Shown in pieces: positions 3,364 through 31,074 of a DNA stretch of 33,017 bases. Source of the stretch: a virus (Duplodnaviria; Heunggongvirae; Uroviricota; Caudoviricetes); IMG/VR virus record IMGVR_UViG_3300029886_000150, one strand, 5' to 3'. The translations under genes and the position numbers were made by a program. The notes under the pieces are model-generated. The model had not been told where the DNA came from, ran no database searches, and worked only from the letters and a program-made list of their open reading frames with translations. The stretch's first letter is position 1; every line of letters starts with the position of its first letter.

Positions 3364-3587
3364 TGCCGGACAACGTAGATTTCATTCAGGAACAACAGGC
3401 TGAATTACTGGAGCGCCAGATTAACGCGGCAAGGGTAAAACATTGCGGTGTTTCTGCGCTGGTTTGCGAAGAGTGTGACGCGCCAATACCTGCTGCCCGT
3501 CGTGCGGCTTATCCGTCAGCCACGCGTTGTGTTTCCTGTCAGTCAGTCTTTGAAGCAAAAAACAAACATTACCGGAGAACGGCATGA
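3363..3587 (+). CDS. TraR/DksA-family C4 zinc-finger protein, 74 aa
   Basis: Four cysteines in CxxC...CxxC spacing (CEECD ... CVSCQ) typical of the TraR/DksA fold; ATG 3363 overlaps the previous stop (TAATG). Confidence 0.7.
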   Translation: MPDNVDFIQEQQAELLERQINAARVKHCGVSALVCEECDAPIPAARRAAYPSATRCVSCQSVFEAKNKHYRRTA

Positions 3588-3859
3588 GTATTCGTATCGA
3601 AATTGGCGAACGTTATGTCGTTACCAGTGACAGCTTTCAGTTTATTCTCCACGAGAAAAAGAGAGCGGAAAGCGGTAAAAACGCCGGTCAGGAATGGCTG
3701 GCGGTGGTTGGTTATTACCCGAAATTAAGCCAGCTCGTTTCCGGCCTGATGCATCACGATATTCTGACCGGAAGCGCAAAGTCTTTTGCTGATTTAAACG
3801 CGCAGGTTGAGCAACTCAGCAAGCGTTGTTCAGAGGCTTTTGGCTCATATGGCCGTTAA
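3584..3859 (+). CDS. Hypothetical early protein, 91 aa
   Basis: ATG 3584 after GGAGAACGGC; ends at 3859, overlapping the A start. Confidence 0.6.
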   Translation: MSIRIEIGERYVVTSDSFQFILHEKKRAESGKNAGQEWLAVVGYYPKLSQLVSGLMHHDILTGSAKSFADLNAQVEQLSKRCSEAFGSYGR

Positions 3860-6134
3860 AGCCTCCGGGCGTTTTGTCCCTCCGTCAGCATTTGCCGCAG
3901 GCACCGGTAAGGCGTTTACCGGTGCTTATGCATGGAACGCGCCACGCGAGGCTGTCGGGCGCGAAAGACCCCTTACACGTGACGAGATGCGTCAGGTGCA
4001 AGGTGTTTTATCCACGATTAACCGCCTGCCTTACTTTTTGCGCTCGCTGTTTACTTCACGCTATGACTACATCCGGCGCAATAAAAGCCCGGTGCACGGG
4101 TTTTATTTCCTCACATCCACTTTTCAGCGTCGTTTATGGCCGCGCATTGAGCGCGTGAATCAGCGCCATGAAATGAACACCGACGCGTCGTTACTGTTTC
4201 TGGCAGAGCGTGACCACTATGCGCGCCTGCCGGGGATGAATGACAAGGAGCTGAAAAAGTTTGCCGCCCGTATCTCATCGCAGCTTTTCATGATGTATGA
4301 GGAACTCTGCGATGCATGGGTTGATGCACATGGCGAAAAAGAATCGCTGTTTACGGATGAGGCGCAGACTCACCTGTATGGTCATGTTGCTGGCGCTGCA
4401 CGTGCTTTCAATATTTCCCCGCTCTACTGGAAAAAATACCGTAAAGGACAGATAACCACGAGGCAGGCATATTCTGCCATTGCCCGTCTGTTTAACGATG
4501 AGTGGTGGACTCATCAGCTTAAAGGCCAGCGTATGCGCTGGCATGAGGCGTTACTGATTGCTGTCGGGGAGGTCAATAAAGACCGTTCTCCTTATGCCAG
4601 TAAACATGCCATTCGTGATGTGCGTGCACGCCGCCAGGCAAATCTGGAATTTCTTAAATCGTGTGACCTTGAAAACAGGGAAACCGGCGAGCGCATCGAC
4701 CTTATCAGTAAGGTGATGGGCAGTATTTCTAATCCTGAAATTCGCCGGATGGAGCTGATGAACACCATCGCCGGAATTGAGCGTTATGCCGCCGCAGAGG
4801 GTGATGTGGGGATGTTTATCACGCTGACCGCGCCGTCAAAGTATCACCCGACACGTCAGGTCGGAAAAGGCGAAAGTAAAACCGTCCAGCTAAATCACGG
4901 CTGGAATGATGAGGCATTTAATCCAAAGGATGCGCAGCGTTATCTCTGCCATATCTGGAGCCTGATGCGCACGGCATTCAAGGATAATGATTTACAGGTC
5001 TACGGTTTGCGTGTCGTCGAGCCACACCACGACGGAACGCCGCACTGGCATATGATGCTTTTTTGTAATCCACGCCAGCGTAACCAGATTATTGAAATCA
5101 TGCGTCGCTATGCGCTCAAAGAGGATGGCGACGAAAGAGGAGCCGCGCGAAACCGTTTTCAGGCAAAACACCTTAACCGGGGCGGTGCTGCGGGATATAT
5201 CGCGAAATACATCTCAAAAAACATCGACGGCTATGCACTGGATGGTCAGCTCGATAATGATACCGGTAGGCCGCTGAAAGACACAGCTGCGGCTGTTACC
5301 GCATGGGCGTCAACGTGGCGCATTCCGCAATTTAAAACGGTTGGTCTGCCGACAATGGGGGCTTACCGTGAATTACGCAAATTGCCTCGCGGCGTCAGCA
5401 TTGCTGATGAGTTTGACGAGCGCGTCGAGGCTGCACGCGCCGCCGCAGACAGTGGTGATTTTGCGTTGTATATCAGCGCGCAGGGTGGGGCAAATGTTCC
5501 GCGCGATTGTCAGACTGTCAGAGTCGCCCGTAGCCCGTCGGATGACGTTAACGAGTACGAGGAAGAAGTCGAGAGAGTGGTCGGCATTTACGCACCGCAT
5601 CTCGGCGCGCGTCATATTCATATCACCAGAACCACGGATTGGCGCATTGTGCCGAAAGTTCCGGTCGTTGAGCCTTTGACTTTAAAAAGCGGCATCGCCG
5701 CGCCTCGGAGTCCTGTCAATAACTGTGGAAAGCTCACTGGTGGTGATACTTCGTTACCGGCTCCCACGCCTTCTGAGCACGCCGCAGCAGTGCTTAATCT
5801 GGTTGATGACGGTGTTATCGAATGGAATGAACCGGAGGTCGTGAGGACGCTCAGGGGTGCATTAAAACACGGCCTGAAAACACCAAACCGTCAGCAAAGA
5901 AACGGAAGCCCGTTAAAATCACATGAAATAGCACCGTCGGCCAGGCTGACCCGGTCGGAACGATTGCAAATCACCCGTATCCGCGTTGACCTTGCTCAGA
6001 ATGGAATCTTGCCCCAGCGATGGGAGCTTGAGGCGCTGGCGCGTGGGGCAACCATAAATTATGACGGGAAACAATTCACGTATCTGGCTGCTGATGAGTG
6101 GCCGGGATTCTCAACAGTAATGGAGTGGACATGA
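3849..6134 (+). CDS. A: Rolling-circle replication initiator / nicking endonuclease A (P2 gpA-like), 761 aa
   Basis: ORF track 3807..6134 begins at TTG; first ATG at 3849 gives 761 aa, the P2 gpA length. Sequence resembles the gpA family as recalled; position after B and the early ORFs. Confidence 0.9.
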   Translation: MAVKASGRFVPPSAFAAGTGKAFTGAYAWNAPREAVGRERPLTRDEMRQVQGVLSTINRLPYFLRSLFTSRYDYIRRNKSPVHGFYFLTSTFQRRLWPRIERVNQRHEMNTDASLLFLAERDHYARLPGMNDKELKKFAARISSQLFMMYEELCDAWVDAHGEKESLFTDEAQTHLYGHVAGAARAFNISPLYWKKYRKGQITTRQAYSAIARLFNDEWWTHQLKGQRMRWHEALLIAVGEVNKDRSPYASKHAIRDVRARRQANLEFLKSCDLENRETGERIDLISKVMGSISNPEIRRMELMNTIAGIERYAAAEGDVGMFITLTAPSKYHPTRQVGKGESKTVQLNHGWNDEAFNPKDAQRYLCHIWSLMRTAFKDNDLQVYGLRVVEPHHDGTPHWHMMLFCNPRQRNQIIEIMRRYALKEDGDERGAARNRFQAKHLNRGGAAGYIAKYISKNIDGYALDGQLDNDTGRPLKDTAAAVTAWASTWRIPQFKTVGLPTMGAYRELRKLPRGVSIADEFDERVEAARAAADSGDFALYISAQGGANVPRDCQTVRVARSPSDDVNEYEEEVERVVGIYAPHLGARHIHITRTTDWRIVPKVPVVEPLTLKSGIAAPRSPVNNCGKLTGGDTSLPAPTPSEHAAAVLNLVDDGVIEWNEPEVVRTLRGALKHGLKTPNRQQRNGSPLKSHEIAPSARLTRSERLQITRIRVDLAQNGILPQRWELEALARGATINYDGKQFTYLAADEWPGFSTVMEWT

Positions 6135-9947: not shown

Positions 9948-11719
9948 CAGTAAAACTCCAGAATGGTGGATGTCAGCGGAGTGCTGATACCGGCGGTGAG
10001 TGGCTCATTTAACAGGGCGTGCATGGTCGCCCAGGCGAGGTCGGCGTGGCTGGCTTCCTCGCTGCGGCTGGCCTCATAGGTGGCGCTGCGTCCGCTGCTG
10101 GTCATGGTCTTGCGGATAGCCATAAACGAGCTGGTGATGTCGGTGGCGCTGACGTCATATTCCAGACAGCCACGGCGGATAACGTCTTTTGCCTTGAGCA
10201 CCATTGCGGTTTTCATTTCCGGCGTGTAGCGGATATCGCGCGCGGCGGGATAGAACGAGCGCACGAGCTGGAACACACCGACACCGAGGCCGGTGGCATC
10301 AATCCCGATGTATTCGACGTTGTATTTTTCGGTGAGTTTGCGGATGGATTCTGCCTGGGTGGCAAAGTCCATGCCTTTCCACTGGTGACGTTCAAGGATC
10401 CTGAATTTGCCACCGGCCACCACCGGCGGTGCCAGCACCACGCATCCGGCGCTGTCGCCACGGTGTGACGGGTCGTAACCAATCCATACCGGACGGGAGC
10501 CGAACGGATTGGCGGCAAACGGCGCATAGTCTTCCCATTCTTCCAGCGTGTCGACCATGCAGCGTTGCAGCTCCTCGAACGGGAACACCGACGCCTTGTC
10601 GTCAACAAATTCACACATGAACAGGTTTTTAAAATCGTCGGCGCTGTTTTCACGTTTGAGCTGCTCAATGTCGAACAGTGTGCAGCCACCTTTCAGGGCA
10701 TCCTCAATGGTGACAATCTGCCGCCACTGGCCGTCCGCACAGAGAAGACCTCCGGCAAGGGCGTTATGACTGACGTCGATTTCCACACGTTCGGCGGCGC
10801 TGGCGCGTCCCCGGTTGAACAGTTCACCCGACCAGAACGGGTAGGCGTCGTGCGCCAGCGTGGACGGGGTGGAGAAATAGGTCGAGCGCAGGTGACTCTG
10901 TGAGGCCATACCTGATGCCACCTTACGCAGTACCTGAAAATTCGGGATCCAGAAAATCTCGTCGACGTACAGGTCGCCGTTATGGCTCTGCGCGGTGTTG
11001 GAGTTGGTGCCGAGAAAAATCAGTTTTGCGCCGTTATTGCCCAGGACAATCGGGTCACCGGTCAGGTCAACGTCAACCAGCCGGGCAAAGGCGATGATGT
11101 ATTCGCGGAACACATACGCCTGCGTTTTACTGGCCGACAGAAAAATCTGGTTATGACCGGTTTTCAGGGCGCGCAGCAGCGCCTCGCGGGAAAAATAAAA
11201 CGTCGCGCCAATCTGGCGGGATTTCAGGATATCGCGGATGCGGTGCTCAAGCCCGGCGCGATACCAGTGCAACTGATATTCGAAAGACTGCTCAAAGAAA
11301 ATCTGCTCCAGCTTTTCGATGGCCTCGTCACTGAAAAAATTCTTTTTCGGTTTGCGACGCCCGCCTTTGTTGCGGTTAGCGACGTTCGGATTAAGGTCTG
11401 CCTCGTTGCCGGTCTGACTGTAACGGTTGACCCGTGCCAGTCGTTCAATCTGGCGTCCGAGCAGGTCAATTTCCTTGAAGTCACCGCCGGTTTTCTGCGG
11501 TTTGATGATGAGCTGGGTCAGCCGCGCTTCCAGACTCATTTCGACACGGCTGATGGGGGCAACGCTGTCCCAGCCGTCGCGCTGCTTCCAGCTCTGCACC
11601 GTCGGGCGTTTCATCTGCAACATGGCGGCAATCTGCGGCACGGAAAATCCCTGCCAGTACAGCAGCGCCGCCTGACGACGCGGGTCGTGTAAAAGAGTGG
11701 TGTCTGTGGTGATGGTCAT
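9947..11719 (-). CDS. P: Terminase large subunit / ATPase (P2 gpP-like), 590 aa
   Basis: ORF track 9947..11749; trimmed to ATG at 11717-11719 (MTITTDTT...), giving 590 aa, the P2 gpP length. Divergent from O. Confidence 0.9.
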   Translation of the reverse strand: MTITTDTTLLHDPRRQAALLYWQGFSVPQIAAMLQMKRPTVQSWKQRDGWDSVAPISRVEMSLEARLTQLIIKPQKTGGDFKEIDLLGRQIERLARVNRYSQTGNEADLNPNVANRNKGGRRKPKKNFFSDEAIEKLEQIFFEQSFEYQLHWYRAGLEHRIRDILKSRQIGATFYFSREALLRALKTGHNQIFLSASKTQAYVFREYIIAFARLVDVDLTGDPIVLGNNGAKLIFLGTNSNTAQSHNGDLYVDEIFWIPNFQVLRKVASGMASQSHLRSTYFSTPSTLAHDAYPFWSGELFNRGRASAAERVEIDVSHNALAGGLLCADGQWRQIVTIEDALKGGCTLFDIEQLKRENSADDFKNLFMCEFVDDKASVFPFEELQRCMVDTLEEWEDYAPFAANPFGSRPVWIGYDPSHRGDSAGCVVLAPPVVAGGKFRILERHQWKGMDFATQAESIRKLTEKYNVEYIGIDATGLGVGVFQLVRSFYPAARDIRYTPEMKTAMVLKAKDVIRRGCLEYDVSATDITSSFMAIRKTMTSSGRSATYEASRSEEASHADLAWATMHALLNEPLTAGISTPLTSTILEFY

Positions 11720-23709: not shown

Positions 23710-24237
23710 ATGCAGCATTTAAAAAATATTACGGCGGGTAATCCAAAAACGGTTGAACAATATCAATTGACAAAGGACTTTGATGTTGTCTGGTTTTTTT
23801 CAGAAGATGGTAAGAACTGGTACGAACAACAAAAGTATTTTGCTGATGACACGATGAAAATAGCGTACGACAAAGATAATATCATCCGCTATGTGGAAAA
23901 GGATGTGACAGCTATCAGACCGGATGGATTAAGTGTTGTTGAAGTGGCGGATATTACTGCTAACCGACGGGCGGACATTTCAGGGAACTGGATGTTTAAG
24001 GACGGCAAAGTGATTAAACGCATTTATACGGCAGAGGAATTGCAGCAGCAGGCAGAAATTCGGAAAGCCAGACTTCTTGCAGATGCTGAATCCGTGATTT
24101 TGCCGCTGGAGCGCGCGGTCAGACTGAACATGGCAACAGAGGAGGAGCGCACACGGCTGGAGTCTTGGGAACGCTACAGCGTTCTGGTCAGTCGTGTGGA
24201 TCCTGCAAATCCTGAATGGCCGGAAATGCCGCAATAA
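23710..24237 (+). CDS. G: Tail fibre assembly chaperone G, 175 aa
   Basis: ORF 23710..24237 directly after H; 175 aa as in P2 gpG. Confidence 0.85.
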
Positions 24238-24428
24238 GTTGTATGAGCTCTGGTGGGAGCTTACATATCTATGGCACAGAGTAAAGCCTAATCTGACAGT
24301 CCGCTCTGTGCCATTACCGGACATACTGAGCAGAAGGCTAAAAAGGACGCTTTCAGGACATATAGCAAGGGAGCAAGGATGAAAGAATTAACCCAGTATA
24401 TTTAATGTTTCAATCATGATAGTTTCTG

Positions 24429-24461
24429 AATTAAAGGGGGGGGTACCCACCCCCTTTAATT
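24429..24461. terminator. Strong palindromic hairpin AATTAAAGGGGG (loop) CCCCCTTTAATT; candidate bidirectional terminator
   Basis: 12-bp perfect stem (24429-24440 / 24450-24461) with a 9-nt loop, overlapping the stop codon of the minus-strand 92-aa gene and about 190 bp downstream of G. Confidence 0.55.
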
Positions 24462-24738
24462 ACTTGTTCCACTCAGTCAGAATTTGGTTACTAACTTCAT
24501 CTGAGAGATTGTACCAATAAGCTGAGTTATTGGTTGCATCTACAACAATAAGCTTATCATCACTATCCATGACCGCCCTCACAATTTTGGCTGCATCCTC
24601 GACAGAGTAACTACAGTTAACATACCAGTTCGATTCAGTTGTTAAAGCCCAATTTCCTAAAGATTTAATTGCATCATACACAGCCGCATAATCTTTCGTT
24701 TTAATGAGGTCGTAAGTAATAAATAAATTATTAGCCAT
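24460..24738 (-). CDS. Hypothetical cargo protein, 92 aa, function unknown
   Basis: ORF 24460..24738 minus; ATG with GGGAG ribosome-binding site (6-nt spacer); AT-rich; alternating hydrophobic and charged segments suggest a small alpha/beta domain. Confidence 0.6.
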   Translation of the reverse strand: MANNLFITYDLIKTKDYAAVYDAIKSLGNWALTTESNWYVNCSYSVEDAAKIVRAVMDSDDKLIVVDATNNSAYWYNLSDEVSNQILTEWNK

Positions 24739-24761
24739 AAATCATCTCCCAAAGGACAAAG

Positions 24762-24784
24762 AAAAAAGCGCCTAGAAAGGCGCT
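24762..24784 (-). terminator. Rho-independent terminator between the DUF3606-like gene and the 92-aa gene (minus strand)
   Basis: Stem AGCGCCT / AGGCGCT (24767-24773, 24778-24784) with a 4-nt loop, followed on the minus strand by a 6-U tract (plus-strand A-run 24762-24767). Confidence 0.6.
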
Positions 24785-24790
24785 CATATA

Positions 24791-24970
24791 TTAATGGTCT
24801 TTAAGCCATGCCTGTACTTTCTTAGCCGAATGACCTACAGCCTGTACGGCTTGAACAAGTTTGGCCTCGCTAACTCCAAACTTTTCAGCCCAATCACGTC
24901 TCTCGTAATCCTGTTTGATACTTATTAAATCATTGTCAGGGGTACCGATTTTGGTCTTATCATCAGCCAT
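24791..24970 (-). CDS. DUF3606-like small protein, 59 aa
   Basis: ORF track 24791..25009 trimmed to ATG 24968-24970 (MADDKTKIGTPDNDLISIKQDYERRDWAEKFGVSEAKLVQAVQAVGHSAKKVQAWLKDH); the pattern matches the DUF3606 family as I recall it; GAGGA ribosome-binding site. Confidence 0.6.
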   Translation of the reverse strand: MADDKTKIGTPDNDLISIKQDYERRDWAEKFGVSEAKLVQAVQAVGHSAKKVQAWLKDH

Positions 24971-25461
24971 TTTACTGATTCCTCGTGATACAGGCTTATA
25001 CCTGCCCATTAGTTATATGGCTCCCGTGCTGCTTCGTAAACGTTCAATAATCAAACAATTGACACTGATCATAAAACCAGTTAGAGGATTTGACTCTAGC
25101 TTGGATATATGATGATGCCACCCCCTTTATATTGTTGTCGGTAACTCACAGACATTGAACTCATGCTGGTGAGTGAAAGGCTACATAAACGCCCAACATT
25201 TAAACTGCCCTCAGCAGTGTTCGCGGAGCAATATACAGGCTTCGTATTCAATCCTTGCCCTACGAGAAACCCTAGCCGTTGCCTCGTTTTCAAGTGTCAG
25301 GAAGTTCTTTGTCAGACCTCATACAGTCTTGGGCTGGGTGAGGTGCATGGGGGAAGTTGAAGCCTTAACTGTTGAGGTAAATCGAACTATAAGTGTGCAA
25401 TTTTTCAAGCTCGGCGCTATTTTAGTATTGAAAACAATTAGTACGCCCCCAAGGACAACTC

Positions 25462-26028
25462 ATGATCGAATTTATCGCAGAGCATATAAACACAGTAAGT
25501 ACACTTATCTCCGCTTTGGCAGCATTGCTAACAGCAGTTGCTACATTTTTCTTGTGGAGAGTAACAAGGCTATTAGCAGACGAGACAAAAAGGATGGTTG
25601 ACGCATCAGTTCAACCTCATGTCGTTGTGACTCTTGAACCAAATTCTTGGGCTGCTTTTTATTTTGATATCAATATTGCTAATACCGGAAATGCCCCAGC
25701 CTATGATATTGAAGTCGGATTTAATCCCCCACTGGTTAATGCAGAACATAGAAAAAATAAAGGTATACCATTTAGCAAGGTTAGCGTATTGAAAAACGGC
25801 CATTCCCTCAACAGCAGTCTTTGTAAGTATGACCAGATTAAAGATCAAGTTTATTCTGTTAGTATTAGCTGGTCTAAACAGCCGGGCTCAACTGAAAGAG
25901 AGCGGAATGAGTATTCTTATGATATGGCTTCTTTCGAGGGGGTTAGCTACTTAGGTGCAAGGAGTCCAATGACACAGATAGCTGAGCAGATGAAAAAGAT
26001 TAGAGAAGACTGGAGGCCGATTTCCTAG
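25462..26028 (+). CDS. Membrane-anchored cargo protein, 188 aa (one N-terminal TM helix plus soluble domain), function unknown; ends at an in-frame TAG
   Basis: ATG 25462 after AAGGA; hydrophobic segment VSTLISALAALLTAVATFFLW; AT-rich. The frame stays open for 41 further codons after TAG 26026-26028, to TAA 26152-26154. Confidence 0.6.
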   Translation: MIEFIAEHINTVSTLISALAALLTAVATFFLWRVTRLLADETKRMVDASVQPHVVVTLEPNSWAAFYFDINIANTGNAPAYDIEVGFNPPLVNAEHRKNKGIPFSKVSVLKNGHSLNSSLCKYDQIKDQVYSVSISWSKQPGSTERERNEYSYDMASFEGVSYLGARSPMTQIAEQMKKIREDWRPIS

Positions 26029-26289
26029 GGAAGCAAAAAAATTAAAACAGACAACTATAATTCAAGTGACAGAGCCGAGGAACAACGAGCACGTGAAGAG
26101 TGGTATCAGACCACTGCAAAGAAATGGGATAAAGAAAAGCAAAAAGATAACTAATACAATTGACCTGCTCCCCATAAATTAGCATACCACAATCTCAGGT
26201 CCGCTCTTCGCTCAAAACAGGCTGTCAGATTTGACAGAATTTTGGTTACGTAATTTGTCAGTTGGAAACAGAGAGAGTACAAATCAAGG

Positions 26290-26414
26290 CAGGCAAGCTG
26301 ATTGCCCGCCTTTTCTTTATCTGTTGTTTCATCCACTGACCAGCCAGGTCAAATAGCGTCTCATGTACTACCCAACGGAAAATAGTTGCACCCATTAACC
26401 ACGGAGTTAAACGG
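26290..26414 (+). promoter_or_regulatory. Expected late promoter region P_F upstream of FI
   Basis: Intergenic region upstream of the FI start, assigned by position as in P2; contains the dyad TGACC-N5-GGTCA (about 26350-26364). Not confirmed as an Ogr site. Confidence 0.35.
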
Positions 26415-27605
26415 ATGAGTGACTATCATCATGGCGTGCAGGTGCTGGAGATTAACGACGGCACCCGCGTCATTTCCACCGTATCTACTGCCATTGTCGG
26501 CATGGTCTGCACGGCCAGCGATGCGGATGCGGAAACCTTTCCCCTCAATAAACCTGTACTGATTACCAATGTGCAGAGCGCAATTGCAAAGGCCGGTAAA
26601 AAAGGCACGCTGGCGGCATCGTTGCAGGCCATCGCTGACCAGTCAAAACCGGTCACCGTTGTCGTGCGCGTGGAAGACGGCACCGGTGATGACGAGGAAA
26701 CGAAACTCGCACAGACCGTTTCCAATATCATCGGCACCACCGACGAAAACGGTCAGTACACCGGACTGAAAGCCCTGCTGGCGGCGGAGTCGGTAACCGG
26801 TGTTAAACCGCGTATTCTCGGTGTGCCGGGACTGGACACCAAAGAGGTTGCTGTTGCACTGGCATCCGTCTGTCAGAAGCTGCGCGCTTTCGGATATATC
26901 AGCGCATGGGGCTGTAAGACCATTTCCGAGGTGAAAGCCTACCGCCAGAATTTCAGCCAGCGTGAGCTGATGGTCATCTGGCCGGATTTCCTCGCATGGG
27001 ATACGGTCACCAGTACCACCGCCACCGCGTATGCCACCGCCCGTGCGCTGGGTCTGCGCGCTAAAATCGACCAGGAGCAGGGCTGGCATAAAACGCTGTC
27101 CAATGTCGGGGTAAACGGTGTTACCGGCATCAGTGCCTCTGTATTCTGGGATTTGCAGGAGTCCGGCACCGATGCTGACCTGTTGAACGAGTCAGGTGTC
27201 ACAACGCTGATTCGCCGTGACGGTTTCCGCTTCTGGGGTAACCGTACCTGCTCGGATGACCCGCTGTTCCTCTTTGAAAACTATACCCGCACCGCGCAGG
27301 TGCTGGCCGACACGATGGCTGAGGCGCACATGTGGGCGGTGGACAAGCCCATCACTGTAACGCTGATTCGCGACATCGTTGACGGCATCAATGCCAAATT
27401 CCGTGAGCTGAAAACAAACGGCTATATCGTGGATGCGACCTGCTGGTTCAGCGAAGAATCCAACGATGCGGAAACCCTCAAGGCCGGAAAACTGTATATC
27501 GACTACGACTATACACCGGTGCCTCCTCTTGAAAACCTGACCCTGCGCCAGCGTATTACCGATAAATACCTGGCAAATCTGGTCACCTCGGTTAACAGCA
27601 ATTAA
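26415..27605 (+). CDS. FI: Contractile tail sheath protein FI, 396 aa
   Basis: ORF 26415..27605; 396 aa as in P2 gpFI. Confidence 0.9.
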   Translation: MSDYHHGVQVLEINDGTRVISTVSTAIVGMVCTASDADAETFPLNKPVLITNVQSAIAKAGKKGTLAASLQAIADQSKPVTVVVRVEDGTGDDEETKLAQTVSNIIGTTDENGQYTGLKALLAAESVTGVKPRILGVPGLDTKEVAVALASVCQKLRAFGYISAWGCKTISEVKAYRQNFSQRELMVIWPDFLAWDTVTSTTATAYATARALGLRAKIDQEQGWHKTLSNVGVNGVTGISASVFWDLQESGTDADLLNESGVTTLIRRDGFRFWGNRTCSDDPLFLFENYTRTAQVLADTMAEAHMWAVDKPITVTLIRDIVDGINAKFRELKTNGYIVDATCWFSEESNDAETLKAGKLYIDYDYTPVPPLENLTLRQRITDKYLANLVTSVNSN

Positions 27606-28468: not shown

Positions 28469-28620
28469 CGTTTCCGAAAAATCTCTCGGTCGATGACCTG
28501 ATGGCGGATGTGGCAGTGATATTTCACTGGCCGCCATCAGAACTGTATCCCATGAGCCTGACCGAACTCATCACATGGCGCGAAAAGGCGCTCCGGCGAA
28601 GCGGAAACACGAATGAGTAA
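28193..28620 (+). CDS. E: E+E' frameshift product (programmed -1 frameshift at TTTTTTG 28442-28448)
   Basis: After the slip, the -1 frame is open from 28447 to TAA 28618-28620 (about 57 codons), overlapping the T start; same architecture as the P2 E/E' (gpG/GT-like) chaperone pair. Confidence 0.7.
28442..28448 (+). other. Slippery heptamer TTTTTTG for -1 programmed ribosomal frameshifting
   Basis: Heptamer located 6 codons before the E stop, with an open -1 frame downstream. Confidence 0.7.
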
Positions 28621-31060
28621 CAATGTAAAATTACAGGTATTGCTCAGGGCTGTTGACCAGGCATCCCGCCCGTTTAAATCCATCCGCACAGCGAGCAAGT
28701 CGCTGTCGGGGGATATCCGGGAAACACAAAAATCACTGCGCGAGCTGAACGGTCACGCATCCCGTATTGAGGGATTCCGCAAGACCAGTGCACAGCTCGC
28801 CGTGACTGGTCATGCACTTGAAAAGGCTCGGCAGGAAGCAGAAGCCCTTGCCACACAGTTTAAAAACACCGAACGTCCGACCCGTGCTCAGGCGAAAGTG
28901 CTGGAATCCGCAAAGCGTGCGGCGGAGGACTTACAGGCGAAATATAACCGCCTGACGGATTCCGTTAAACGCCAGCAGCGGGAACTGGCCGCTGTGGGAA
29001 TTAATACCCGCAATCTTGCACATGATGAGCAGGGACTGAAAAACCGTATCAGTGAAACCACCGCACAGCTTAACCGTCAGCGCGACGCGCTGGCGCGTGT
29101 CAGTGCGCAACAGGCAAAACTTAACGCAGTCAAACAGCGTTATCAGGCCGGAAAGGAGCTGGCCGGAAATATGGCCTCAGTGGGCGCTGCCGGTGTGGGG
29201 ATTGCGGCGGCGGGAACGATGGCCGGAGTTAAGCTGCTGATGCCCGGTTATGAGTTTGCGCAGAAAAACTCAGAATTGCAGGCCGTGCTCGGAGTGGCAA
29301 AAGACTCCGCCGAAATGACCGCACTACGCAAACAGGCGCGCCAGCTCGGCGACAATACCGCCGCCTCGGCGGATGATGCGGCCGGTGCACAGATAATCAT
29401 CGCGAAAGCGGGTGGGGATGTTGATGCCATTCAGGCAGCAACGCCGGTCACGCTGAATATGGCGCTGGCGAACCGCCGCACGATGGAAGAAAACGCCGCC
29501 CTGCTGATGGGGATGAAATCCGCCTTTCAGCTTTCAAACGATAAGGTCGCTCATATCGGGGATGTTCTCTCCATGACGATGAACAAAACCGCCGCCGATT
29601 TTGACGGCATGAGCGATGCGCTGACCTATGCCGCACCTGTGGCAAAAAATGCCGGTGTCAGCATTGAAGAAACCGCCGCAATGGTCGGGGCGCTGCATGA
29701 TGCAAAAATCACAGGCTCAATGGCGGGGACGGGAAGCCGTGCCGTATTAAGCCGCCTGCAGGCACCGACGGGAAAAGCATGGGATGCACTCAAAGAGCTT
29801 GGAGTGAAAACCTCAGACAGCAAGGGAAACACCCGGCCAATATTTACCATTCTGAAAGAAATGCAGGCCAGTTTTGAGAAAAACCGGCTCGGTACTGCCC
29901 AGCAGGCTGAATACATGAAAACTATTTTCGGGGAGGAGGCCAGCTCAGCCGCCGCCGTGCTGATGACTGCCGCCTCAACCGGAAAGCTGGACAAACTGAC
30001 CGCTGCGTTTAAAGCCTCAGACGGGAAGACCGCCGAGCTGGTAAATATCATGCAGGACAACCTAGGCGGTGACTTTAAAGAGTTTCAGTCCGCTTATGAG
30101 GCAGTGGGGACTGACCTGTTTGACCAGCAGGAAGGCGCACTGCGTAAGCTCACTCAGACGGCCACAAAGTATGTGTTAAAACTCGACGGCTGGATCCAGA
30201 AAAACAAATCACTGGCGTCAACCATCGGCATCATTGTCGGTGGTGCACTGGCACTGACTGGTGTCATCGGTGCCATTGGCCTCGTAGCCTAGCCGGTTAT
30301 CACCGGCATCAATGCCATCATCGCGGCAGCAGGCGCAATGGGGGCAATCTTCACGACGGTTGGCAGTGCTGTTATAACCGCCATCGGGGCGATTAGCTGG
30401 CCGGTTGTGGCCGTGGTGGCCGCCATTGTCGCCGGGGCGTTGCTTATCCGTAAATACTGGGAGCCTGTCAGCGCATTCTTTGGCGGTGTGGTGGAAGGGC
30501 TGAAAGCGGCATTTGCGCCGGTGTGGGAACTGTTCACGCCACTTAAACCGGTGTTTGACTGGCTGGGTGAAAAGTTACAGGCCGCGTGGCAGTGGTTTAA
30601 AAACCTGATTGCCCCGGTCAAAGCCACCCGGGACACCCTGAACCGTTGCCGTGACACGGGCGTCATGTTCGGGCAGGCACTGGCTGACGCGCTGATGCTG
30701 CCGCTTAATGCGTTCAACAAACTGCGCAGTGGTATTGACTGGGTACTGGAAAAACTCGGTGTTATCAACAAAGAGTCAGACACACTTGACCAGACCGCCG
30801 CCAGAACTCAAGCCGCCACGTATGGCAGCGGTGGTTATATTCCGGCGACCAGCTCTTATGCAGGTTATCAGGCTTATCAGCCGGTCACGGCACCGGCTGG
30901 CCGCTCTTATGTAGACCAGAGTAAAAACGAATATCACATCAGCCTGACGGGTGGTACTGCGCCGGGGACACAGCTCGACCGCCAGTTACAGGATGCGCTC
31001 GAAAAATACGAGCGGGATAAACGTGCGCGCGCCCGTGCCAGCATGATGCATGACGGTTAA
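28613..31060 (+). pseudogene. T: Tail tape-measure protein T, full-length frame of 815 codons interrupted by one in-frame TAG at 30290-30292 (codon 560)
   Basis: ORF track splits it into 28613..30292 (559 aa) and 30338..31060 (240 aa) in the same frame; total length equals P2 gpT (815 aa); no frameshift, a single amber codon. Confidence 0.8.
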
Positions 31061-31074
31061 GGAGGTGACGAAAA

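Follow-up and report, generated by a model that had tools for sequence, protein, structure and literature searches.

The Z/fun locus has been described as a second defence-enriched hotspot of P2-like phages (PMC9519451; bioRxiv 10.1101/2024.10.15.618418), and Z/fun of P2 as well as the other cargo found between the genes G and FI (Vassallo et al., 2022; PMC9519451) share with the gene described here the hotspot itself, a composition of low-GC foreign DNA, and presumably expression from the prophage. The likeness to this defence cargo is one of location only, and the gene has no sequence similarity to any PADLOC model. The same gene was deposited in 2002–2004 as part of the "Bacteriophage P2-EC53 proviral Z-region" (AJ512682), an island that is also present in phage R18C and whose annotation lists a "Left inverted repeat" and a 230-aa "putative lysogenic conversion protein ORF1" (CAD54906.1), a name that is a guess of the depositors. 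The family of ORF1 is named "DUF8453 domain-containing protein" in one RefSeq genome, and a literature search for P2-EC53 or DUF8453 found no papers.

The window, which is the whole stretch of 33,017 nucleotides that we analyzed, is a complete P2-like (Peduovirus) prophage of E. coli that extends from the integrase at 1–996 to ogr at the far end, and in relatives the prophage is inserted between pflA and pflB. The gene of interest sits between the tail-fibre-assembly gene G (23710–24237, Caudo_TAP) and the tail-sheath gene FI (26415–27605), which is the classical Z/fun cargo position of phage P2. It is part of a cargo island at roughly 24290–26231 that has 41% GC, compared with 51.5% for the window, and a repeat search showed that the island is bracketed by an imperfect inverted repeat of 33 nt and 73% complementarity, with its left arm at 24290–24322 and its right arm at 26199–26231. 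ORF reading, hydropathy and AlphaFold2 together describe a truncated cargo gene of 188 codons and an amber stop on the plus strand (25462–26028). A Shine–Dalgarno-like AAGGA can be read on the same strand 6 nt 5′ of the ATG (25451–25455), and a ribosome-binding site is annotated at the equivalent spot in AJ512682. About 130 nt past the original stop codon, a consensus scan, which is a pattern match only, detected a terminator-like G+C hairpin followed by a T-run on the plus strand (26286–26320) that likely ends the transcription unit. The correspondence with P2-EC53 ORF1 is close, with about 98–99% identity of DNA and protein, the same position between G and FI, inverted repeats, and a promoter-proximal ribosome-binding site; the difference is that codon 189 is CAG in P2-EC53, giving a protein of 230 aa, whereas it is TAG in the window, giving 188 aa.

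The reading frame starts with the ATG at 25462, meets the TAG at 26026–26028, and then continues with 41 sense codons, which translate to GSKKIKTDNYNSSDRAEEQRAREEWYQTTAKKWDKEKQKDN, up to a TAA at 26152–26154. All of this had been located exactly by a sequence-only reading of the same DNA, which had called the open stretch somewhat unexpected and had offered two explanations, either an acquired amber mutation in a gene that once encoded about 229 aa, or chance. The first of these assessments holds in part: the probability of 41 stop-free codons is 0.074 at the composition of the island (41% GC), and, counted empirically, the distance from one stop to the next is 41 codons or more in 8.7% of cases within the island and in 14% of cases across the whole window. 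By itself, the open run is thus only mildly unusual and not rare (P about 0.07–0.09), which would be compatible with a gene that had always ended at 26028 and was followed by non-coding DNA without stops. At such a probability, mutation and chance cannot be told apart from the sequence by itself, and it is the relatives that settle the matter.

Closest to the window is the prophage of E. coli DG341-1, which differs from it at 2 of 33,017 bases (24602 and 26026), has CAG at codon 189, and carries an annotated 230-aa CDS. CAG is also found at codon 189 in strain 2452, in SW071614, in phage R18C and in P2-EC53, and all of these frames have 230 aa or more. The whole 1.1-kb region is present in 98 complete E. 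coli genomes at 97.7–99.9% identity, and in the closest of these genomes the CDS is annotated with 693 nt, corresponding to 230 aa. The TAG is absent from all of the 90–99 complete genomes in which the stretch occurs. When 5,426 complete E. coli genomes were searched with an 81-nt probe centred on the TAG, none contained it exactly, and each of the 60 matches listed differed from it by exactly one base. The alignment therefore identifies the TAG at 26026–26028 (plus strand) as a derived codon that arose by C to T at 26026, all relatives having CAG (Gln189) at this place, and the mere two differences from the DG341-1 prophage show that the amber codon is very young. This also explains why the codons behind it are still open, as the mutation is so recent that no further change has accumulated; the former C-terminal 41 codons with the original TAA (26029–26154, plus strand) are identical in DNA to the intact allele.

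The same picture emerged when the comparison was extended to the family. The read-through form matches positions 1–230 of the 230 positions of PHROG 11802 with E=3.2e-147, and gp24 of phage R18C and P2-EC53 ORF1 (CAD54906.1), which are 98–99% identical to the window's gene, both encode 230 aa. A first search gave 234 homologues from Enterobacterales, Xanthomonas, sphingomonads and metagenomes. All 56 full-length aligned homologues (43–84% identity) run beyond position 188, by 27–58 residues with a median of 43, and at codon 189 the residue is Q, K, S or R in 53 of the 56. In the tail of these homologues, G190 is invariant, and D197, D203, R204 and E207 are conserved in at least 90%, forming the motif G190-x-[KR]-[KR]-x-x-x-D197-x-[YF]-x3-D203-R204-x2-E207. 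Relative to an 85%-identical homologue, dN/dS was 0.19 in the tail (codons 189–230) and 0.076 in the body, and by this measure the tail of the long subfamily is under purifying selection, less constrained than the body but clearly constrained. An alignment of homologues had been recommended by the sequence-only reading as a means to decide the case, and in the close family it gave neither a common end at position 188 nor a lack of conservation downstream; only a distant subfamily of about 185 aa ends at this boundary, which is the one further observation that would speak for chance. Every close or moderately distant homologue has a sense codon at this place, what follows codes for conserved residues on which purifying selection acts, and DG341-1 differs at codon 189 solely by C in place of T, so that the chance explanation is refuted and we regard it as having practically no probability left.

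The acquired amber mutation is thus the alternative that is borne out, by the CAG of DG341-1, by the absence of the TAG from complete genomes, by PHROG 11802 and by the homologues, with the correction that the longer ancestral product had 230 and not 229 aa. From these comparisons, we conclude that the ancestral product is the 230-aa protein and that the TAG is a very recent single-base truncating mutation (CAG to TAG), which is ordinary as a phenomenon. What the window's product lacks is the intact frame of 215–250 aa with the G190...D203-R204...E207 motif, yet the DNA behind the stop still encodes this motif together with a last helix at residues 201–229. The window's copy is a truncated allele of the PHROG 11802 family and not a different gene, and the codons at 26029–26154 are no longer translated in this allele. 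The stretch from 25462 to 26154 is one gene with a premature stop, the truncated allele of the 230-aa P2-EC53 ORF1/PHROG 11802 family, and should not be annotated as a 188-aa gene plus an unexplained ORF. With high confidence, we therefore describe it as one gene of a conserved stand-alone "moron" family in the P2-like Z/fun hotspot that has recently acquired a C-to-T amber mutation at Gln189.

The amber allele has a very narrow occurrence. The exact 188-aa protein with the TAG in its DNA was found in one human-gut metagenome only (ERR912185, project PRJEB9576), in two independent assemblies, and the TAG call is therefore the consensus of the reads of one sample. Two further records of an apparent 188-aa protein (contigs L014 and L016) were rejected as additional samples, as both belong to the CAG allele and break off with their contig after the second nucleotide of codon 189. 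One may thus ask whether the strain truly has CAG and the T is an error or stems from a sub-population of the metagenome, in which strain mixtures are common, especially as the allele is confined to a single sample and the two other records proved to be cut by contig ends. However, the T was called from ERR912185 by two independent assemblers, in an ENA megahit contig (L013) and in a Logan contig (L015), the site at 26026 lies outside any homopolymer, and the ENA contig is otherwise identical to the window, base by base, over 17,556 bp. An artefact or minority variant is, on this evidence, quite improbable, and we regard the TAG as the genuine sequence of this allele. As a separate observation, the two Logan contigs L014 (end at 10566) and L016 (end at 1474) come from unrelated samples and both stop 2 nt into codon 189 (...TTTCCCA); this shared end suggests a branch of the assembly graph, possibly due to coexisting alleles or paralogues.

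A second amber codon is present elsewhere in the prophage. The tape-measure gene (28613–31063) has an in-frame TAG at 30290–30292 in place of TGG (Trp560), which splits it into ORFs of 559 and 240 aa. This amber is common to at least nine of the complete genomes listed, with ten counted at ≥99% identity (DG341-1 clones and OY754371), and in the sister prophage RefSeq treats the gene as a pseudogene ("internal stop"). The window's prophage is probably unable to build tails, and it looks as if it is in early decay, with the tape-measure amber inherited from a DG341-1-like ancestor.

The presence of two amber codons, at 26026 and at 30290, raises the question of whether the TAG could be decoded, either by programmed read-through or by suppression, for example through a supE-type tRNA that inserts Gln, with the 230-aa protein still being made and the tape measure rescued in the same way. 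With a glnV(supE) suppressor, residue 189 would again be exactly the Gln of the wild type, and the supE44 allele occurs in 155 of 5,424 complete genomes. However, all 60 supE44 carriers listed among these 155 have genomes of about 4.5–4.8 Mb and are mostly named as K-12 laboratory derivatives, whereas the source of the window is a human-gut metagenome, and the window contains no tRNA gene. The stop is also not conserved, since no stop occurs at codon 189 in any of the 56 homologues or of the complete E. coli genomes, and the sister prophage has its tape measure annotated as a pseudogene. Both ambers are, moreover, simple G:C-to-A:T transitions, the commonest type of spontaneous change. We consider suppression or read-through very improbable.

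Where, then, does the truncation fall in the protein? There is a single hydrophobic segment, at residues ~12–32 (Kyte–Doolittle 2.05), and no other, and this hydropathy result and the AlphaFold2 model agree with the earlier description of one N-terminal transmembrane helix and an unassigned soluble domain. The AlphaFold2 model of the 230-aa form (mean pLDDT 82) consists of a helix at 2–49, which includes the membrane segment, a seven-stranded beta-sandwich at 54–154, a helix at 169–188, a loop at 189–200, and a helix at 201–229 with block pLDDT values of 84–93; the position of the amber codon coincides with the exact end of the helix 169–188. The hydrophobic segment is preceded by an acidic N-terminus and followed by the basic residues R33, R36, K43 and R44, and the soluble part, comprising sandwich and tail, is thus predicted to be cytoplasmic by the positive-inside rule. 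In the alignment, A27, T28, L31, W32, V34, T35, L38, A39, E41, T42 and R44 are invariant, and the C-terminal half of the membrane helix together with the juxtamembrane stretch belongs to the most conserved parts of the protein. This conservation points to a role of the segment in a specific interaction, within or at the membrane, beyond that of a passive anchor.

Scans of the 188- and 230-aa forms against Pfam, NCBIfam and PADLOC gave no significant match, and in PADLOC-DB 2.0.0, a library that includes the PD-T4, PD-lambda and PD-T7 systems, no defence family reached an E of 1 or better with the 230-aa form. A profile search against PDB sequences gave only noise at E>0.1, which was due to the charged helix. 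Structure searches returned only generic Ig-like sandwiches, proteins that combine a membrane helix with a sandwich, and uncharacterised phage proteins. The best matches, which were nevertheless weak, were archaeal type IV pilins and archaellins, TRAP subunits, and cytoplasmic domains of Kir channels, which resemble the protein in having a long hydrophobic N-terminal helix and, behind it, a sandwich. A class III signal peptide or prepilin-peptidase site was not found at the N-terminus (MIEFIAEHINTV), which is acidic and has neither a basic leader nor a G/A cleavage motif.

The normal product is 230 aa long and, according to these models, begins with a short acidic N-terminus and a membrane helix, on which a beta-sandwich of seven strands and two C-terminal helices follow, with a conserved basic/acidic linker between these helices. 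The single C-to-T transition at 26026 has turned Gln189 (CAG) into an amber codon (TAG), so that translation ends behind the helix 169–188 and the product lacks the conserved linker motif and the last helix. The 188-aa product would accordingly be devoid of whatever function the clade-specific tail has.

Natural proteins that lack the tail are known from two sides, and they bear on what the truncated product may still do. A profile search of 1.84 billion representatives identified 1,762 clusters at an E of 1e-3 or better, and about 19 of the best 150 profile hits have only 175–196 aa and end 0–10 residues after the equivalent of residue 188. Like the window's product, this short subfamily has the membrane helix, the beta-sandwich and a single C-terminal helix. 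In contrast to it, these proteins are only 25–42% identical, their short end is ancestral or long established and not due to a fresh nonsense mutation, and, as far as proteins show, there is no former tail behind their stop. The existence of this subfamily in nature implies that a membrane helix, a sandwich and one helix are self-sufficient, and that the tail is an addition found in the long subfamily. E. coli relatives of ~190 aa (P0058, P0064), which could be mistaken for further C-terminal truncations, were rejected as such: their N-terminus is cut by an IS3-family insertion and they keep the full tail.

The second case is an independent truncation at Tyr199 (TAT to TAA), carried by 10 of 99 complete genomes, whose hosts vary. 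The resulting 198-aa protein occurs on 553 contigs, compared with 576 for the commonest full-length sequence, and the allele is found, for example, at L003:3163–3861, on the contigs L017–L024 at 4001–4597, and in SW071614 (WP_001695640.1). It carries a further CAA-to-TAA change at codon 208 and a change of Lys179 to Asn, and in the prophages with this allele the tail fibres come in four lengths and the tape-measure gene is intact, with 815 aa. As in the window, the nonsense mutation removes the same C-terminal helix while the downstream frame is largely preserved; unlike the window's allele, the Y199* allele keeps G190–D197 and is found widely, Q189* in a single sample only. Since the cut in the window falls where the distant short subfamily of about 185 aa ends naturally, we infer that the 188-aa product probably still inserts into the membrane and folds. 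As the Y199* allele is common and tail-less relatives exist, the truncated protein may well keep full or part of its activity.

It could be argued from these cases that the loss of the tail is advantageous, for example because it relieves a cost or changes activity or specificity, and that the amber mutation is adaptive and not a sign of decay. Two independent nonsense mutations, Q189* and Y199*, have indeed occurred within 11 codons, Y199* is frequent and is carried by prophages whose tail fibres differ and whose tape measures are intact, there is a subfamily that naturally lacks the tail, and both SNPs relative to DG341-1 fall into the 1.9-kb cargo island. Two events are, however, too few for a test, and in the long subfamily purifying selection acts on the tail. 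The second stop in the Y199* lineage, at codon 208, shows only that the tail is no longer read, the second SNP in the island is conservative and lies at a variable site, and the Q189* allele has not spread beyond one sample. Furthermore, the prophage already looks defective due to the amber in its tape-measure gene, which fits a general decay. A selected truncation is therefore unlikely in our view. A more specific version, in which the protein acts against phages from a membrane anchor, its tail serves as a module for regulation or for binding a partner, and removal of the tail is recurrently selected in E. coli (Q189*, Y199*, tail-less relatives), is slightly less likely still; if it were true, truncation would yield a constitutively active or re-targeted form and not a dead gene. 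A recent truncating mutation in a conserved gene remains the reading that we prefer.

The island contains two further genes, both on the minus strand. One encodes a 92-aa protein that matches phrog_1090 (24460–24738), and the other is a DUF3606 gene (24791–25009; Pfam PF12244, E=4e-18) with an ORF of 72 aa that is annotated in relatives from an internal start with 59 aa. Both were rejected as functional partners, since they are never near the distant homologues of the 230-aa protein. The difference from DG341-1 at 24602 lies in the 92-aa gene, where the window has Val46 and DG341-1 has Ala46; we also rejected this SNP as a damaging change, as the site is variable, Val occurs naturally in homologues, and the change is conservative. 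The phrog_1090 proteins are very uniform, almost always of 92–93 aa, and widespread in Enterobacterales. They have a faint Cas2-like and DUF3884-like similarity (E about 0.03–0.08), and some sources label them "Cas2" or "Cas system-associated". Just 3′ of the 92-aa gene, there is a perfect G8/C5-rich hairpin at 24429–24461 (AATTAAAGGGGGGGG / CCACCCCCTTTAATT) that is terminator-like on both strands. The two differences at 24602 and 26026 are both situated in the 1.9-kb island and are both C-to-T changes on the coding (non-transcribed) strand of their own gene, which may be a coincidence or may stem from deamination that accompanies transcription, if these genes are expressed in the lysogen.

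The neighbourhoods of the homologues are heterogeneous. The gene beside a homologue is an integrase in Xanthomonas and an AbiJ_NTD4 gene in Enterobacter and E. coli, and other homologues lie in an ICE of Pectobacterium and in an integrase islet of Klebsiella. There is no conserved partner, which indicates a stand-alone gene. The E. coli case is a 70%-identical paralogue clade in a different island (L031–L033 at 4001–4573; L026 at 3501–5077), where the gene is convergent with the AbiJ_NTD4 gene and near a P4-like primase, and where its 5′ end including the membrane helix has been replaced or cut by an IS3-family insertion; an intact version of 234 aa adjoins the same AbiJ_NTD4 gene in Enterobacter roggenkampii. 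A distant relative is encoded by the Bacillus phages Goe12/Goe13 (MT601273.1, 64411–64890), with 27% identity over residues 34–187, and the sandwich core of the family thus reaches Firmicute phages, namely large phages of Bacillus subtilis.

Circumstantial pointers lead to the exclusion class of phage proteins, namely the hotspot location, the membrane anchor with its invariant juxtamembrane segment, and neighbours of the mobile or defence type such as AbiJ_NTD4. By location and neighbours only, we tentatively suggest that the prophage could express the protein in the inner membrane as a factor for phage exclusion or abortive infection, a possibility to which we give somewhat less than an even chance.

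In summary, the amber mutation matters little by itself, and the gene family to which the truncated allele belongs had already been catalogued. The family is more interesting than the mutation: with about 1,760 clusters at 50% identity it is large, it is wholly uncharacterised, and its stand-alone genes are found on prophages, ICEs and small islands. The three natural alleles with 230, 198 and 188 aa would provide a ready-made deletion series for the tail, and the family would be a reasonable candidate for a phage-exclusion screen.
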